The notes beneath the pieces are model-generated. The model saw nothing but the letters and a program-made list of their open reading frames with translations, was not told the DNA's origin and searched no databases. Positions 8,592-27,472 of a stretch of 34,379 bases of DNA are shown here, one piece after another (the stretch's first letter is position 1; each line of letters opens with the position of its first letter). Position numbers and translations under genes: made by a program. The DNA lies in the IMG/VR virus record IMGVR_UViG_2778261181_000004; one strand, given 5' to 3'. The DNA comes from a virus. Lineage: Duplodnaviria; Heunggongvirae; Uroviricota; Caudoviricetes.

Positions 8592-9218
8592 CTAGAGTTC
8601 GTATTGAACTCCTTTGACTACACCAATGATGAGGCAATTACCATTGATCGGGATGTTGGGGTACCGGGGATTTAATGGCACTAAAAACTTTTGAGGGCCA
8701 TCGATAACTAATTTTTTTACTGTGGCTTCGTTTGTTCCATCAAGTCTAGCGATGACTATTTTTCCATGCCGGGGTTCTGCATCAGGATCTACAATCACTG
8801 TTGCGCCTTCTGGTATTGTTGGGAGGCCGTTAGGGTTAGTCATGGAGTCGCCTTTAACCTCCAATGCAAATGAGTTATCACCAATCTTTAATGATGTATC
8901 TACCCACTTGTCTACTTCACTAAACACTTCTGCTGTCCTGCACTCAGTAAACTGCCCAGCCTGAACCCACGAGATTACAGGAACTCTGCGCATGTTTGTG
9001 ACGAGTTTGCCTTCAAACTCCGCACCATAAAGAATGTAATCTATTGACGTATTGAAGAACTTCGCTAATTTTGAAAGTGCTTCCCCACCAGGGACATTGA
9101 TGTCTTTCTCCCAGTACCCCACAGCAACGTCACTTACTCCACAAAATTTACCCAATTCTTTCTGGGACGTTCTGGTAACTCTTCTCAGAGCTTTTATACG
9201 CTGACCAACCGTTTCCAT
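8592..9218 (-). CDS. cI-like prophage repressor (N-terminal HTH plus C-terminal S24 LexA-like autopeptidase domain)
   Basis: N-terminal HTH (QKELGKFCGVSDVAVGYWEK); C-terminal domain with GDSM active-site Ser motif; divergent from a cro-like gene. Confidence 0.85.
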   Translation of the reverse strand: METVGQRIKALRRVTRTSQKELGKFCGVSDVAVGYWEKDINVPGGEALSKLAKFFNTSIDYILYGAEFEGKLVTNMRRVPVISWVQAGQFTECRTAEVFSEVDKWVDTSLKIGDNSFALEVKGDSMTNPNGLPTIPEGATVIVDPDAEPRHGKIVIARLDGTNEATVKKLVIDGPQKFLVPLNPRYPNIPINGNCLIIGVVKGVQYEL

Positions 9219-9315
9219 AGGAGCACCATTTCTTTAATTACTAAGTAATCTTAGTTTTTATTGACCTAAGATAGATTGATAATTAACATCTAATAAAACT
9301 TAGTTTGGAGGGCAT
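9219..9315. promoter_or_regulatory. Right operator/promoter region (oR / pR / pRM analogue)
   Basis: Inverted repeat ACTAAGTAATCTTAGT at 9240-9255; CTTAGTT copies at 9250-9256 and 9299-9305; candidate -35 TTGACC (9261-9266) and -10 TAACAT (9284-9289); GGAGGG RBS before the cro-like ATG. Confidence 0.5.
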
Positions 9316-9516
9316 ATGACGACTGACGATATCGAAAGCTACTTCGGCAGCATTGAGAAAGTTGCTGCTTTTTTCGGCATAACAACTGAAGCCGTTTATC
9401 AGTGGCGAAACCGTCCTGGCCAGTTAATTCCAAAAGGACGTGCAGCAGAGGCTGCATATAGAACTTGCGGACGGTTGCCATTTAAACCTGAGCTTTATGA
9501 AAAATCTAATGGATAA
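9316..9516 (+). CDS. Cro-like transcriptional regulator (YdaS-type)
   Basis: 66-aa HTH protein divergent from the repressor; GGAGGG RBS 4 nt upstream. Confidence 0.75.
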   Translation: MTTDDIESYFGSIEKVAAFFGITTEAVYQWRNRPGQLIPKGRAAEAAYRTCGRLPFKPELYEKSNG

Positions 9517-10482: not shown

Positions 10483-11475
10483 ATGAGCCTGTTAATGACA
10501 TCCCAGCCCATTGTGATAAATCGTGATCTTGCATGCCGTATTGGTCTGAATGAGGCAATTGTGTTGCAGCAGCTTCATTACTGGCTGAATGAAACGAATT
10601 CCGGCACTGAGCATGGCGGAATTCGCTGGGTTTATAACACGACAGAACAGTGGCTGGAGCAGTTTCCGTTCTGGTCAGAGTCCACTCTGAAACGCACATT
10701 TGCAAGCCTGAAATCACTTGGGGTTTTGCGTCGCGAGCAACTCAATAAATCGAAGCGTGACATGACCAACTTCTACACGATCAACTATGAAAGTGAGCTT
10801 CTAGAAGAGGTCAAAGTGAACGAATCCATCAGGTCAAAATGCACTTCTCCATCGGGTCAAAGTGACCTGATGGATGGGCGCAAAATGACACGATCCATTG
10901 GTTCAAAACGACACGCTGTCATCGGGTCAAAATGGCCCAATGATCTTACAGAGAATACAACAGAGATTACTACAGAGAATAAAACCTCTTCTCGTCCGGA
11001 CGCTTCGCAACCGGACACGCAGATGGCTGAACAGGATTTTTTAACTCGCCATCCTGATGCGGTTGTATTCAGCCCTAAAAAGCGCCAGTGGGGAACGCAG
11101 GATGATTTGACCTGCGCACAGTGGCTCTGGAAAAAAATCATCGCTCTGTACGAGCAGGCCGCCGAATGTGACGGCGAAGTGGTACGTCCTAAAGAACCGA
11201 ACTGGACAGCCTGGGCAAACGAAATTCGCCTGATGTGTGTACAGGATGGGCGTACTCACAAACAAATCTGCGAGATGTACAGCCGCGTCAGCCGCGATCC
11301 GTTCTGGTGCCGTAACGTGCTCAGCCCGTCGAAGCTGCGGGAAAAATGGGATGAGCTTTCCCTGCGCTTATCGCCGTCCGTCAGCACGCACACAGAAAAA
11401 CGCGAAGACCCGTACTTCAAAGCCAGTTACGACAATGTGGACTACAGCCAGATCCCGGCAGGATTCAGGGGGTGA
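10483..11475 (+). CDS. Replication initiation protein, lambda O-like, with the origin embedded in the gene
   Basis: Position after the cII-like gene; internal iteron array and adjacent AT-rich tract; AGAGG RBS. Confidence 0.7.
   Translation: MSLLMTSQPIVINRDLACRIGLNEAIVLQQLHYWLNETNSGTEHGGIRWVYNTTEQWLEQFPFWSESTLKRTFASLKSLGVLRREQLNKSKRDMTNFYTINYESELLEEVKVNESIRSKCTSPSGQSDLMDGRKMTRSIGSKRHAVIGSKWPNDLTENTTEITTENKTSSRPDASQPDTQMAEQDFLTRHPDAVVFSPKKRQWGTQDDLTCAQWLWKKIIALYEQAAECDGEVVRPKEPNWTAWANEIRLMCVQDGRTHKQICEMYSRVSRDPFWCRNVLSPSKLREKWDELSLRLSPSVSTHTEKREDPYFKASYDNVDYSQIPAGFRG
10805..10940 (+). repeat. Origin iterons: about six direct repeats of a GGTCAAA(A/G)TG-type core
   Basis: Cores at about 10809, 10830, 10855, 10878, 10901 and 10925 (spacing 21-25 bp), followed by an AT-rich ACAGAGA-repeat tract at 10941-10990. 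Confidence 0.6.
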
Positions 11476-11477
11476 TC

Positions 11478-11966
11478 ATGAGTCTTTTGAATGAAGCTCA
11501 GAAATTCATTGAAGCCCATCCGGGGTGTACTTCCGGAGACATTGCGGATGCTTTTGCAGGTTACTCACGGCAGCGCGTTCTGCAGTCAGCAAGCAAGTTA
11601 CGTCAGAGTGGGCGTGTGGCTCACCGTTGTGAAGGAGATACACGCAGACATTTCCCACGCCTGACTGAGAGAGCGCAGGAGCCGGAACCACAACCAGTTC
11701 GTGAAACCAGACCTGTGCGCAATTTCTATGTCGGCACTAACGATCCCCGGGTGATTTTGTGCCTGACCCGCCAGGCTGAAGAACTGGAGTCCAAGGGCTT
11801 ATACCGTCGTGCTGCAACCGTGTGGATGGCGGCATTCCGTGAAAGCCACTCCCAGTCAGAACGAAACAATTTTCTGGCGCGCCGTGAGCGGTGCTTACGG
11901 AAAAGCAGCAAGCGCGCTGCATCGGGTGAAGAGTGGTATCTGTCAGGGAATTACGTGGGGGCTTAA
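11478..11966 (+). CDS. YfdN-like protein; C-terminal region resembles PerC/ANR-type regulators (tentative)
   Basis: ATG 11478 after AGGGGGTG, overlapping the O-like stop; C-terminal LTRQAEELESKGLYRRAATVWMAAF motif; sits where lambda P would be. Confidence 0.5.
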   Translation: MSLLNEAQKFIEAHPGCTSGDIADAFAGYSRQRVLQSASKLRQSGRVAHRCEGDTRRHFPRLTERAQEPEPQPVRETRPVRNFYVGTNDPRVILCLTRQAEELESKGLYRRAATVWMAAFRESHSQSERNNFLARRERCLRKSSKRAASGEEWYLSGNYVGA

Positions 11967-12619
11967 TGAGTAATAAATATTGCCAGGCGCTGGTGGAACT
12001 GCGGAACAAACCAGCCCATGAACTGAAGGAAGTGGGCGATCAGTGGCGCACGCCGGACAACATTTTCTGGGGAATTAACACCCTGTTTGGCCCGTTTGTT
12101 CTGGATCTGTTCACTGACGGTGATAACGCCAAATGTGCCGCGTATTACACGGCGGAAGATAACGCGCTGGCGCATGACTGGTCAGAACGTCTTGCGGAGC
12201 TTAAAGGTGCTGCCTTTGGTAATCCCCCATACAGCCGCGCCAGTCAGCATGAGGGGCAATACATCACCGGCATGCGTTACATCATGAAACATACCAGTGC
12301 CATGCGTGATAAGGGCGGGCGCTATGTTTTCCTGATCAAAGCTGCCACCAGCGAAGTGTGGTGGCCGGAAGATGCGGACCATATTGCTTTTATTCGCGGG
12401 CGTATTGGTTTTGAACTGCCTGCCTGGTTTATCCCGAAGGATGAGAAGCAGGTGCCGACAGGAGCTTTCTTCGCTGGTGCTATTGCTGTTTTCGACAAGA
12501 CCTGGAAGGGACCGGCAATCAGCTACATCGGGCGCGATGAACTTGAGGCATGTGGTGAAGCCTTTCTGGTGCAGGTTCGCCAGCAGGCGGAAAAACTGGT
12601 CAGGGAGATGGCAGCATGA
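11966..12619 (+). CDS. Phage Dam-like N6-adenine DNA methyltransferase
   Basis: Catalytic NPPY motif (FGNPPYS); TAATG overlap with the upstream stop; typical nin-region location. Confidence 0.75.
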   Translation: MSNKYCQALVELRNKPAHELKEVGDQWRTPDNIFWGINTLFGPFVLDLFTDGDNAKCAAYYTAEDNALAHDWSERLAELKGAAFGNPPYSRASQHEGQYITGMRYIMKHTSAMRDKGGRYVFLIKAATSEVWWPEDADHIAFIRGRIGFELPAWFIPKDEKQVPTGAFFAGAIAVFDKTWKGPAISYIGRDELEACGEAFLVQVRQQAEKLVREMAA

Positions 12620-12942
12620 CGACGTTAACTCAATGCCAGCAGCAGGTGCTGGATATGCTGATTTCTTACCAGAAAGAACGTGGCTTCCCGCCAACCAATC
12701 AGGAGGTGGCAACCATGCTGGGATACCGTTCAGTGAATGCAGCGGTGGAGCATCTTCGCGCACTGGAGAAAAAAGGCGTCATTACGATAAAGCGTGGCGT
12801 GGCCCGGGGGATAACGCTTCATACCGCAGTGAAGGACGACGACAGAGAGGCGGTCGGGATTATCCGCTCACTGCTTGCCGGTGAGGAAAACGCAAGGCTG
12901 CGTGCAACCCACTGGTTACATGAGAGGGACCTGAAAGTATGA
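12616..12942 (+). CDS. LexA DNA-binding-domain-like protein lacking the S24 autopeptidase domain
   Basis: N-terminal 70 aa (QQQVLDMLISYQKERGFPPTNQEVATMLGYRSVNAAVEHLRALEKKGVI) closely parallels the LexA N-terminal winged helix; protein ends after about 108 aa. Confidence 0.7.
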   Translation: MTTLTQCQQQVLDMLISYQKERGFPPTNQEVATMLGYRSVNAAVEHLRALEKKGVITIKRGVARGITLHTAVKDDDREAVGIIRSLLAGEENARLRATHWLHERDLKV

Positions 12943-13328
12943 AGCTGATCCTGCCTTTTCCGCCCAGCGTGAACACGTACTGGCGACATCCCAACAAAGG
13001 GGCGTTTGCTGGTAAGAGCCTGATAAGCGCGGCGGGGCGAAAATTCCAGAGCGCGGCGTGCGCAGCAATAGTTGAGCAGTTACGTCGTCTGCCAAAACCA
13101 ACGTCGGCACCTGCTTCAGTGGAGATCGTGTTGTTTCCTCCGGATAACCGGATCCGCGATCTGGACAACTATAACAAGGCGCTGTTTGACGCCCTGACCC
13201 ACGCGGGTGTGTGGGAAGACGACAGTCAGGTGAAAAGAATGCTGGTGGAGTGGGGACCGGTTATCCCGGAAGGGAAGGTCGAGATCACCATCAGTAAGTA
13301 CGAGAAAACGGCGGGTGCAGCCGCCTGA
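12939..13328 (+). CDS. rusA: RusA-family Holliday junction resolvase
   Basis: ATGA overlap with the upstream gene; motif pattern LPFPPSVNTYWRH ... DLDNYNKALFDALT ... WEDDSQV matches RusA. Confidence 0.8.
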   Translation: MKLILPFPPSVNTYWRHPNKGAFAGKSLISAAGRKFQSAACAAIVEQLRRLPKPTSAPASVEIVLFPPDNRIRDLDNYNKALFDALTHAGVWEDDSQVKRMLVEWGPVIPEGKVEITISKYEKTAGAAA

Positions 13329-25500: not shown

Positions 25501-27472
25501 TTCCTGGTTCAGGATGCAGGCTGGTCACCAGAGTGACGCGGATATTTATATTTATGACGAGATTGGTTTCTGGGGTGTTACAGCGAAGCAGTTTATCAGT
25601 GATCTGAATGCACTGGGCGATATCACCCACATTAATCTCCATATCAATTCACCGGGTGGCGATGTCTTTGAAGGCATCGCCATTTTTAATGCGCTGAAAA
25701 CACATGGTGCGTCCATTACCGTTTATGTCGACGGTGTGGCGGCGTCAATGGCGTCGGTCATTGCGATGGTGGGAAACCCGGTCATTATGCCGGAAAACAC
25801 CTTCATGATGATTCATAAACCATTTGGCTTTACGGGCGGTGATGCGGAGGACATGCGCACCTATGCCGACCTGCTCGATAAAGTTGAGGCGGTTCTGTTA
25901 CCCGCTTATGCACAGAAAACCGGGAAAACCACCGATGAAATTGCTGCCATGCTGGCAGATGAGACCTGGATGTCCGGTGCCGAATGTCTGGCACATGGAT
26001 TTGCTGATCAGGTGACGCCAGCCGTTAAGGCAATGGCATGTATTCAGTCAAAACGTACAGAGGAATTTAAAAAGATGCCGGAATCCATTCGAAACATGAT
26101 TACTCCGCCACGCAACAGTGCTCCACGCGTACAGGATAATGAACCTGCAGCCTCCCGGACGCCAGTGCAGGCAGCAGCACCCATGGTGGATGAAAACAGT
26201 ATCCGTGCGCAGGTACTGGCAGAGCAAAAAGCGCGTGTAAACGGTATTAATGATCTGTTTGCCATGTTTGGCGGGCGTTATCAGACGCTGCAGGCTCAGT
26301 GTCTTGCCGATCCTGAATGTTCGCTGGAGCAGGCCCGCGAAAAGCTGTTGAACGAGATGGGGCGCGAGTCCACGCCATCCAATAAAAATACCCCGGCTCA
26401 TATTTATGCCGGTAACGGTAATTTTGTGGGGGACGGGATCCGCCAGGCGCTGATGGCGCGTGCCGGATTTGAAAAAACCGAACGTGATAATGTCTACAAC
26501 GGGATGACCCTGCGTGAATATGCCCGTATGTCACTGACTGAACGGGGTATTGGGGTTTCCAGTTATAACCCGATGCAGATGGTCGGTGCGGCGTTCACAC
26601 ACAGTACGTCTGACTTCGGTAATATTCTGCTGGATGTTGCGAACAAAGCCATTCTGCAGGGCTGGGAAGATGCTCCTGAAACCTATGAACAGTGGACGCG
26701 GAAAGGTCAGTTGTCTGATTTTAAAATTGCCCATCGTGTGGGTATGGGGGGCTTCAGTGCTCTGCGTCAGGTGCGTGAAGGGGCGGAATATAAATACGTC
26801 ACCACCGGAGATAAACAGGCCACTATTGCACTGGCGACCTATGGCGAGCTGTTCAGTATCACCCGTCAGGCCATTATCAATGATGATCTGAATATGCTGA
26901 CCGATGTCCCGATGAAACTGGGCCGTGCGGCGAAATCCACTATTGCCGATCTGGTTTATGCCATTCTGACGTCTAACCCGAAAATCTCCACAGATAATGT
27001 AAGTCTGTTCGATAAAGCGAAACATGCAAACGTACTGGAGAGCGCTGCAATGGACGTGGCATCGCTGGATAAAGCCCGCCAGTTGATGCGCGTTCAGAAA
27101 GAGGGGGAGCGTCATCTGAATATTCGTCCTGCGTTCGTACTGGTACCGACGGCGATGGAGTCTGTTGCTAACCAGGTCATTCGCTCCTCAAGTGTCAAGG
27201 GGGCTGACATTAACGCCGGTATTATTAACCCGGTGAAAGATTTTGCGACCGTTATTGCAGAGCCTCGTCTTGATGATAACAGCCAGACCACCTTCTACCT
27301 GGCTGCGTCAAAAGGCTCCGATACGATTGAAGTGGCTTATCTCAACGGTGTGGATACGCCATATATTGATCAGATGGAGGGCTTCAGTGTGGATGGCGTG
27401 ACAACGAAAGTGCGTATTGACGCCGGTGTCGCGCCAGTTGATCACCGCGGTCTGGTGAAATGTACGGCGTAA
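25445..27472 (+). CDS. Fused head maturation protease (ClpP/S14-like) - scaffold-like linker - major capsid protein
   Basis: Single ORF with N-terminal ClpP-like domain, Ala/Gln-rich helical middle region and C-terminal capsid-like domain; preferred start GTG 25445 with AAAGGAGG 5 nt upstream, overlapping the portal 3' end (ORF-track start 25253 is deeper inside portal). Confidence 0.75.
   Translation: MPQRNDRSRSTPTTSPKNNSWFRMQAGHQSDADIYIYDEIGFWGVTAKQFISDLNALGDITHINLHINSPGGDVFEGIAIFNALKTHGASITVYVDGVAASMASVIAMVGNPVIMPENTFMMIHKPFGFTGGDAEDMRTYADLLDKVEAVLLPAYAQKTGKTTDEIAAMLADETWMSGAECLAHGFADQVTPAVKAMACIQSKRTEEFKKMPESIRNMITPPRNSAPRVQDNEPAASRTPVQAAAPMVDENSIRAQVLAEQKARVNGINDLFAMFGGRYQTLQAQCLADPECSLEQAREKLLNEMGRESTPSNKNTPAHIYAGNGNFVGDGIRQALMARAGFEKTERDNVYNGMTLREYARMSLTERGIGVSSYNPMQMVGAAFTHSTSDFGNILLDVANKAILQGWEDAPETYEQWTRKGQLSDFKIAHRVGMGGFSALRQVREGAEYKYVTTGDKQATIALATYGELFSITRQAIINDDLNMLTDVPMKLGRAAKSTIADLVYAILTSNPKISTDNVSLFDKAKHANVLESAAMDVASLDKARQLMRVQKEGERHLNIRPAFVLVPTAMESVANQVIRSSSVKGADINAGIINPVKDFATVIAEPRLDDNSQTTFYLAASKGSDTIEVAYLNGVDTPYIDQMEGFSVDGVTTKVRIDAGVAPVDHRGLVKCTA

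Follow-up and report, generated by a model that had tools for sequence, protein, structure and literature searches.

The window analysed here is the whole stretch of 34,379 nucleotides in IMG/VR record IMGVR_UViG_2778261181_000004, which belongs to a tailed phage of the class Caudoviricetes. According to the ORF and Pfam analyses, its early genes are arranged in the order repressor, cro-like, CII (CP76)-like, small ORF, and initiator, and the initiator gene is followed by a PerC-like gene. A pR-like site is located between the divergent repressor and cro-like genes; the promoter pattern scan returned two sites against 4.3 expected in shuffled sequences, and the match at this position is weak. 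The flanking features are listed below.

8592-9218, minus strand: CI-type repressor gene (Pfam)
9261-9289, plus strand: pR-like promoter, TTGACC-17-TAACAT (consensus scan, weak match)
9316-9516, plus strand: cro-like (P22-Cro-like) gene (Pfam)
10483-11475, plus strand: initiator gene, 330 codons plus stop (ORF; PHROG 391)
11478-11966, plus strand: PerC-like gene, about 162 aa (Pfam PerC, 1.2e-9; PHROG 1324 'transcriptional activator', 1.1e-77)

The initiator was assigned to PHROG 391 ('replication initiation O-like') with an E-value of 6.9e-102, residues 1-330 being aligned to positions 1-298 of the 298-position profile. No match was obtained for it in Pfam (E <= 0.01) and NCBIfam scans or in a sequence search of the PDB. 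The gene is 99.4% identical to one of Escherichia virus mEp460_4F5, where it is annotated as 'Primosomal protein I'. The N-terminal residues MSLL are conserved across phyla and support the start at 10483; the deposited start of the initiator should probably be moved 12 nt upstream. Four parts make up this chimeric protein, namely a winged-helix N-terminal domain, a linker whose coding sequence carries the repeats described below, a lambda-O-like C-terminal domain, and a short tail resembling that of DnaT:

10483-10800, plus strand: N-terminal domain coding region, aa 1-106, predicted winged helix-turn-helix
11050-11364, plus strand: lambda-O-like C-terminal domain, approximately aa 190-294 (BLASTP vs lambda O)
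11446-11472, plus strand: C-terminal tail SQIPAGFRG, identical to the E. coli DnaT C-terminus at eight of nine residues

The first-pass annotation had described an O-like gene, a name that suits the C-terminal half and not the N-terminal domain. BLASTP against lambda O aligned residues 147-294 only (34% identity over 148 aa, E 2e-27) and left the N-terminal 146 residues without alignment. No Pfam family was found for the N-terminal domain either, including distant members of its family. An AlphaFold2 model of the N-terminal 110 residues (mean pLDDT 87.8) folds as a winged helix-turn-helix, with helices at 54-60 and 66-79, the latter being the recognition helix, and a wing at 82-100. Foldseek comparison of this domain with the PDB returned winged-helix proteins only, all of them weak matches (E >= 6.7e-3, TM ~0.5), and these include the N-terminal domains of plasmid initiators (4pql, 4pt7, and 5kbj). 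These three structures represent RepA_N plasmid initiators of Firmicutes (pSK41 and pTZ2162 RepA), with which the initiator shares the winged-helix N-terminal fold, but the similarity is at the fold level only and weak (E 0.014-0.1, TM 0.4-0.5); no Pfam or sequence match places the initiator in the RepA_N family. RepA_N-type initiators also carry iterons inside the initiator gene.

Between the two domains, the gene contains six direct repeats with a unit of 23 nt (repeat search), which span aa 108-153 of the 330-aa protein:

10804-10826, unstranded: iteron 1, GAAGAGGTCAAAGTGAACGAATC, dyad symmetry weakest of the six
10827-10849, unstranded: iteron 2, CATCAGGTCAAAATGCACTTCTC
10850-10872, unstranded: iteron 3, CATCGGGTCAAAGTGACCTGATG, self-complementary at 18 of 23 positions
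10873-10895, unstranded: iteron 4, GATGGGCGCAAAATGACACGATC, left arm degenerate
10896-10918, unstranded: iteron 5, CATTGGTTCAAAACGACACGCTG
10920-10942, unstranded: iteron 6, CATCGGGTCAAAATGGCCCAATG, self-complementary at 16 of 23 positions, adjoining the 12-mer tract
10943-10985, unstranded: A-rich tract with three 12-nt ACAGAGAnTAC units, candidate unwinding/helicase-entry site

The iteron consensus, CATCGGGTCA-AAA-TGACCCGATG, is a near-perfect palindrome. The presence of about six direct repeats in the coding sequence, as the first-pass annotation had proposed, is borne out; their start-to-start distances are 23, 23, 23, 23, and 24 nt rather than the 21-25 bp given there, and the suggested GGTCAAA(A/G)TG core is exact in four copies (with no further exact match in the 34-kb window), the cores of copies 4 and 5 being degenerate (GCGCAAAATG and GGTTCAAAACG, respectively). 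A repeat finder had been proposed as a check, and Tandem Repeats Finder (TRF) reports both the iterons and the 12-mers as the two best-scoring arrays of the window: the iterons at 10809-10934, with a period of 23 and the top score of 84, and the 12-mers at 10948-10985, with a period of 12 and 3.2 copies. In a leave-one-out weight-matrix comparison, each iteron copy scored above all 68,438 background 23-mers on both strands of the window, and no match to the iterons was found in the window outside the array. Self-identity at a lag of 23 nt reaches 0.59 and exceeds every other periodic signal in the window; other lags give 0.15-0.33. Slightly higher scores come from sliding windows that begin at 10781-10791, which raised a seventh upstream repeat (approximately 10781-10803) as a candidate; it matches the consensus poorly, at about 8 of 23 positions, and was not counted. 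In one relative (L059), iteron 1 contains a 15-nt insertion.

The tract that follows directly after iteron 6 contains three 12-nt units between 10947 and 10985. Its top strand is 51% A, and the least stable 40-nt duplex of the ORF begins exactly at 10943 (98.8th percentile of the window). The A+T content of 10943-10985 is 70%, which is only moderate. The ACAGAGA-repeat tract had previously been noted as AT-rich; it is indeed present after the iterons, but its conservation points to more than base composition. The motif, scored as CAGAGANTWC just downstream of the iteron region, occurs in at least two copies in 44 of 80 distant loci, versus 0.005 expected from flanking DNA. Judged from such comparisons, the tract is a putative sequence-specific 12-mer array that is conserved across phyla, beyond mere low-melting DNA. 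With regard to other origin signals, a window scan for DnaA boxes yielded one perfect match, at 25906 and distant from the array (3.3 expected), GATC showed no enrichment, and there was no Rfam match.

Relatives of the locus indicate that these elements are inherited together. Among 80 IMG/VR loci, at least three C-terminal domains (lambda-O-like, Phg_2220_C, and a third variant) are found behind one and the same combination of N-terminal domain, six iterons, and 12-mers, and divergence between the swapped loci begins right past the third 12-mer. The reverse combination is also found. Phage SfII shares the C-terminal half, with 97% DNA identity from window position 10973 on, and differs in the N-terminal domain and in its iterons, TCAAAATCTGACCCG, which have a 15-nt period. 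SfII-type homology begins at 10973-10979, so that the right-hand mosaic junction of the module coincides with the end of the tract. Yet another N-terminal domain, the third, characterizes the SfV/mEp460/Stx2a_1447 type, which combines it with five GTGCAGGAGATTCACC iterons at 21-24 nt and with 12-mers of its own, GAACCAGTCAAW. Since swaps occur in both directions, the N-terminal domain, iterons, and 12-mers behave as one exchangeable specificity module.

A breadth scan with one genome per species detected the N-terminal domain in Enterobacterales, Pseudomonas, Acinetobacter, Moraxella, and Comamonas as well as in Campylobacterota, Bacteroidota, Firmicutes, and Chloroflexota. In 44 loci (43 of the 80 plus the window itself), the N-terminal domain is directly followed by three or more palindromic NNN-CAAWWTG-NNN sites with a phasing of 22-24 nt. 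In a protein search with the N-terminal domain, the matches listed were all shorter than 200 aa; three of the contigs contain truncated or split genes, with arrays that are faint at most. Among these, the gene of locus L089 is interrupted by a resolvase gene, and GA(A/T)AAATG recurs there at 23-nt spacing.

The arms of the iterons vary by lineage with their symmetry kept (GGT/ACC, GGG/CCC, GGA/TCC, GTGC/GCAC, GGAT/ATCC, and TACC/GGTA), and the base next to the core varies with one residue of the N-terminal domain. Across the 44 arrays, which range from Enterobacterales to Firmicutes, Bacteroidota, and Chloroflexota, residue 67 and the base flanking the CAAWWTG core share 1.50 of 1.62 bits of mutual information, compared with 0.97 for the next best column, in a correlation that is confounded and inflated by shared ancestry and uses a half-site consensus drawn from 3-8 sites per locus. 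The predicted recognition helix has residue 67 in its first turn. Ser67 is paired with T in 21 loci, including those of Staphylococcus and Cellulosilyticum, Asp67 with G in nine loci of six genera, Lys67 with A in four, and Asn67 with C in two (Bacillus and Moraxella); both the Asp-G and the Lys-A classes are present in Pantoea. That unrelated hosts repeatedly show identical pairs favours direct read-out despite shared ancestry.

Phage lambda is the textbook case of an initiator gene that contains an origin made up of phased, dyad-symmetric iterons and an A-rich tract. As in ori-lambda, the repeats sit centrally within the initiator gene, where the part coding for the DNA-binding N-terminal domain gives way to that for the C-terminal domain, the phased dyad-symmetric iterons share a central TCAAAA(C/T)G, and an A-rich tract is located immediately to their right. 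The gene itself occupies a comparable place, in a putative rightward operon behind cro and a CII-like gene, and its C-terminal domain is homologous to that of lambda O, with 34% identity. The aligned region opens, in both proteins, where the last iteron and A-rich tract lie (residue 147 here and residue 135, at iteron 4, in lambda O), so the layout matches ori-lambda in position. The likeness to ori-lambda claimed in the first-pass annotation stands for the iterons, the A-rich tract, and their position. On the other hand, the N-terminal domain does not align with that of lambda O, and the lambda iterons, ATCCCTCAAAACGAGGGA, have the arms ATCCCTCA...GAGGGA instead of the GGGTCA...TGACCC found here. 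The 23-bp spacing is regular and the tract is a sequence-specific 12-mer array in the present locus, which in addition has no P gene and ends the initiator with a DnaT-like tail that is absent from lambda O. Six-iteron origins were also described for the Stx phages 933W and P27 (PMC7466680), and the O proteins of lambda and Stx phages bind single-stranded A/T-rich DNA (PMC7466680).

Closer counterparts are the O-like initiators of SfV, SfII, SfIV, mEp460, and some Stx2a phages, which are likewise P-less and carry iterons and short repeats in the linker. They share with the present locus the last 25 codons including the tail, followed by PerC-like, Dam, LexA-like, and RusA genes, and the stretches examined from these phages carry no gene annotated as a helicase or loader. 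The SfII and SfV types differ in having the other N-terminal domains and iterons described above. No paper describing the present iteron and 12-mer sequences was found in the open-access literature, and older accounts may lie outside open access; the replication modules described in a paper on Eru-type Stx phages are others.

Taken together, the iterons and the tract very probably serve a temperate E. coli phage as its origin of replication and lie within the gene that encodes its initiator. That the initiator would bind its own coding region, as proposed in this reading, is supported on comparison with relatives by the module swaps, the constraint at the DNA level, and the co-variation of residue 67 with the flank base. 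The layout is the one already known from lambda, but the DNA-binding domain and the repeat sequence differ here, as probably does the recruitment of the helicase.

Two of the alternatives assign the repeats a role other than that of duplex protein-binding sites. The periodicity might reflect nothing more than a repetitive, low-complexity peptide linker (SxGSK, TExT) with no function at the DNA level. The region does encode a linker rich in Ser, Gly, Lys, Thr, and Glu, and the 12-mers are in one reading frame in 120 of 127 cases. However, a period of 23 is not a multiple of 3, and the first bases of iterons 1-6 fall at codon positions 1, 3, 2, 1, 3, and 3; with every codon phase represented, what repeats is the DNA and not the peptide. 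Diversity by codon position points the same way. In a sample of 48 distinct colinear sequences (76-100% identical), the values at positions 1, 2, and 3 are 0.095, 0.057, and 0.315 in the N-terminal domain, the usual coding signature, and are flat in the iterons (0.126, 0.149, and 0.159), where the core is also less diverse than the flanks (pi 0.089 versus 0.195). The corresponding values for the 12-mers are 0.036, 0.177, and 0.006, which leaves the third position nearly invariant. In the repeated TExT units, picked by the peptide pattern alone, Glu is encoded by GAG in 106 of 106 cases and the first Thr by ACA in 96 of 96, compared with 45% and 25%, respectively, elsewhere in the same genes, and in five lineages one 12-mer copy is read in another frame, as R-D-Y. 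TExT may be under some constraint at the protein level as well, but as a full account of the periodicity the linker has almost no probability left. It is nearly as improbable that the palindromes act as hairpins, in mRNA, cruciforms, or single-stranded DNA, instead of as duplex sites for a dimeric protein. This possibility would accommodate the inverted repeat in every unit and the arms that change together across lineages with complementarity kept. Within the arrays, by contrast, 362 arm positions deviate on one side alone, with loss of pairing, and the double changes keep pairing in 40 cases and break it in 47. Moreover, one half-site is common to all sites of a genome, as expected for protein recognition, the region lacks an Rfam match, and the identity of the flank base goes with that of a recognition-helix residue.

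The other two alternatives accept a function for the DNA and locate the origin or the reason for conservation elsewhere. Plasmid iterons have established roles in copy control and autorepression, and by that precedent the repeats could be sites through which the initiator or another regulator exerts autoregulation or copy control only, with replication beginning at a different place. This is very unlikely given that the 34-kb window contains no comparable repeat array and no weight-matrix match beyond this one, that the array adjoins the least stable stretch of the gene at the position of ori-lambda, and that the N-terminal domain, iterons, and 12-mers travel together across phyla. A similarly small chance is given to the view that the ACAGAGA tract is mainly a recombination joint for lambdoid module exchange and owes its conservation to recombination. 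The mosaic junctions do fall exactly at the end of the tract. Against this, the motif is kept in relatives from Firmicutes, Bacteroidota, and Campylobacterota with a protein identity of only about 50%, a distance at which recent exchange with enterobacterial phages is implausible, and initiators with another N-terminal domain have different 12-mers at the same place. The roles of the tract as a recombination joint and as part of an origin are compatible.

With the origin reading preferred, the loading of the helicase is a step at which the phage departs from lambda. Neither Pfam nor PHROG identified a P-type or other helicase loader directly after the initiator; the PerC-like gene occupies the position of lambda P and, by homology, is not a helicase loader. 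In HannyBb-type relatives, this position is taken by a different small gene, with a LygF or Ren-like annotation. In the complete genome of mEp460_4F5, the closest one deposited, no helicase or loader is annotated and the initiator is the sole annotated replication gene. The lambda loading route is ruled out by these three circumstances, namely the PerC-like next gene, the other small gene of the HannyBb type, and the lack of an annotated loader in mEp460_4F5.

What the initiator has instead is its tail. E. coli DnaT (primosomal protein I) ends in SQIPPGFRG and the initiator in SQIPAGFRG. Among 107 DnaT orthologues, IPxGFRG is the conserved part, the residues ahead of it vary, and a minority carry IPxGFRGAK; phage initiators show both the pattern and its variant, such as IPAGFRGAKP in an Enterobacter locus. 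The likeness to DnaT is confined to these last nine residues. The possibility that the initiator is itself a DnaT was rejected: BLASTP aligned nothing else above chance level, no match to PF17948 or another DnaT Pfam family was obtained, and both the N-terminal domain of DnaT and its three-helix ssDNA-binding domain are absent from the initiator. As only the tail resembles DnaT, the annotation 'Primosomal protein I' is misleading.

The tail is found on every initiator type within the right-hand module, irrespective of the C-terminal domain, and its occurrence is related to the gene that follows. DnaB-type helicases carry the Walker-A motif ARPSMGKT. With a crude P-loop pattern, [AG].{4}GK[ST], applied to only about 1.0-1.6 kb downstream, 22 of 24 tail-bearing initiators have no P-loop ORF behind them (the two matches being short ORFs of 127 and 133 aa), while 25 of 50 tail-less initiators do have one. 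The relation is also seen between individual loci. L057 combines a Phg_2220_C domain with the tail IPPGFRG, and its next gene is PerC-like. L096 matches it in both the N- and the C-terminal domain but lacks the tail, ending in WENTL, and its next gene encodes a lambda P homologue (PF06992, 1.1e-56). IstB/DnaC-like ATPases come next in the tail-less loci L106 and L136. The simplest reading is that the tail would take the place of a phage loader and engage whichever host protein partners the C-terminus of DnaT, a helicase-recruitment step argued from the nine-residue match and the absence of a loader gene. No paper assigning a function to the DnaT C-terminus was found among open-access publications, and the most recent structural paper gives the mechanism by which the preprimosome recruits DnaB/DnaC as unknown (PMC13377028).

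A general scheme of initiation may be proposed from these features. Briefly, dimers of the winged-helix N-terminal domain would bind the iterons, with Ser67 (first turn of helix 66-79) recognizing the T next to the CAAAATG core. At a spacing of 23 bp, or approximately 2.2 helical turns, six dimers could wrap the DNA into an O-some-like complex, the strain of which would open the adjacent ACAGAGAnTAC tract. Given their sequence conservation and their variation with the type of N-terminal domain, the 12-mers are probably read by something, probably the initiator, and we would guess that it may read them as single strands. Host DnaB helicase would then be loaded at the opened tract. IPAGFRG copies the conserved C-terminus of host DnaT, and recruitment would thus probably proceed via the host partner of the DnaT tail, in the DnaB-DnaC pathway. 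Rightward transcription from the pR-like site probably expresses the initiator gene and crosses the origin, and we infer, by analogy with lambda, that the origin may be activated by this transcription.

For annotation purposes, the locus can be treated as an ordinary lambdoid origin, and the analysis corrects a misleading gene name and a probable start. A broader reading, tentative and on balance doubtful, is that the locus belongs to a widespread, undescribed family of origins and initiators in which residue 67 would encode the flank of CAAWWTG, ACAGAGAWTAC 12-mers would be read by a protein, and, in enterobacterial phages, initiators whose P, DnaC, or DnaB partner gene has been lost would recruit the host helicase through mimicry of the DnaT tail. 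The pairing of residue 67 with the flank base would amount to a rule of one residue for one base, governing specificity across a large phage initiator family, and could help to predict or redesign the specificity and incompatibility of origins. The conserved 12-mer element of the origin is a directly testable lead on its reader. In addition, a phage protein that copies the tail of DnaT alone would offer a simple handle on the role of this tail in helicase recruitment and, if the family reading is true, the IPxGFRG tail would be marked as a link between the restart primosome and DnaB-DnaC.

In the deposited record of the closest genome, Escherichia virus mEp460_4F5, the initiator gene begins with MTSQP..., 12 nt downstream of position 10483 of the window (at 10495). 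A start at 10483 rather than 10495 is favoured because the N-terminal residues MSLL are conserved from Enterobacterales to Lactobacillaceae, and this comparison of sequences supports the upstream codon as the true start.

Since the iterons lie within this gene, their number bears on its reading frame. The iteron region of two related IMG/VR loci (L054 and L055) is short of one 23-nt unit; as 23 nt do not make up a whole number of codons, the frame is shifted and a truncated gene of 119 aa is left. It follows that iterons can be gained or lost without a frameshift only in sets of three, and any other change in their number destroys the gene. At another locus, L059, a 15-nt in-frame insertion (GTTACCAACGGTGCG) interrupts iteron 1, the weakest copy, which suggests that this iteron is dispensable. 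With regard to the arrangement of the repeats, a 46-nt period was often preferred by Tandem Repeats Finder at many loci (such as L094, L099, L102, L111, L112, and L130). At these loci, iterons whose outer arms are of the GAAGAGGT type alternate with iterons of the CATCAGGT type, and the iterons may thus be organised in pairs.

The initiator ends in a tail resembling that of a host replication protein:

Window 11446-11472 (aa 322-330): C-terminal tail SQIPAGFRG, 8/9 residues matching the E. coli DnaT C-terminus SQIPPGFRG.

The IPxGFRG motif is conserved in DnaT orthologues (n=107) and, among phage initiators, the absence of a downstream P, DnaC or DnaB gene goes together with the presence of the tail. 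In addition, an E. coli-type copy of the initiator gene was found on two contigs whose MAG labels are 'Veillonella parvula' (L098) and 'Bacillota' (L100). Both share with the window the iteron type and 78% identity in the N-terminal domain, and the tail reads IPPGFRG; they probably represent enterobacterial prophage DNA placed in the wrong genome bin.

Downstream of the replication gene, the following features are found:

Window 11933-12619: Dam-type N6-adenine methyltransferase.
Window 12616-12942: 108-aa ORF, LexA by annotation of the near-identical phage record.
Window 12939-13328: ORF, RusA by annotation of the same phage record.

This right-hand block is common to the window and the SfII, SfV, mEp460, and Stx2a phages. 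GATC sites occur in the origin at 10892 and 10942, and no GATC enrichment was found.

A third initiator type is encoded by the same gene in Stx2a_1447 (locus L174), SfV, and mEp460, and has the same tail as the window's initiator. Its repeat region is as follows:

L174:2023-2171 (Stx2a_1447): five GTGCAGGAGATTCACC iterons, 21-24 nt apart, then three GAACCAGTCAAW 12-mers.

Because this type has its own 12-mers, 12-nt short repeats are, as judged from sequence, a recurrent element after the iterons, with a sequence that varies according to the N-terminal domain type.
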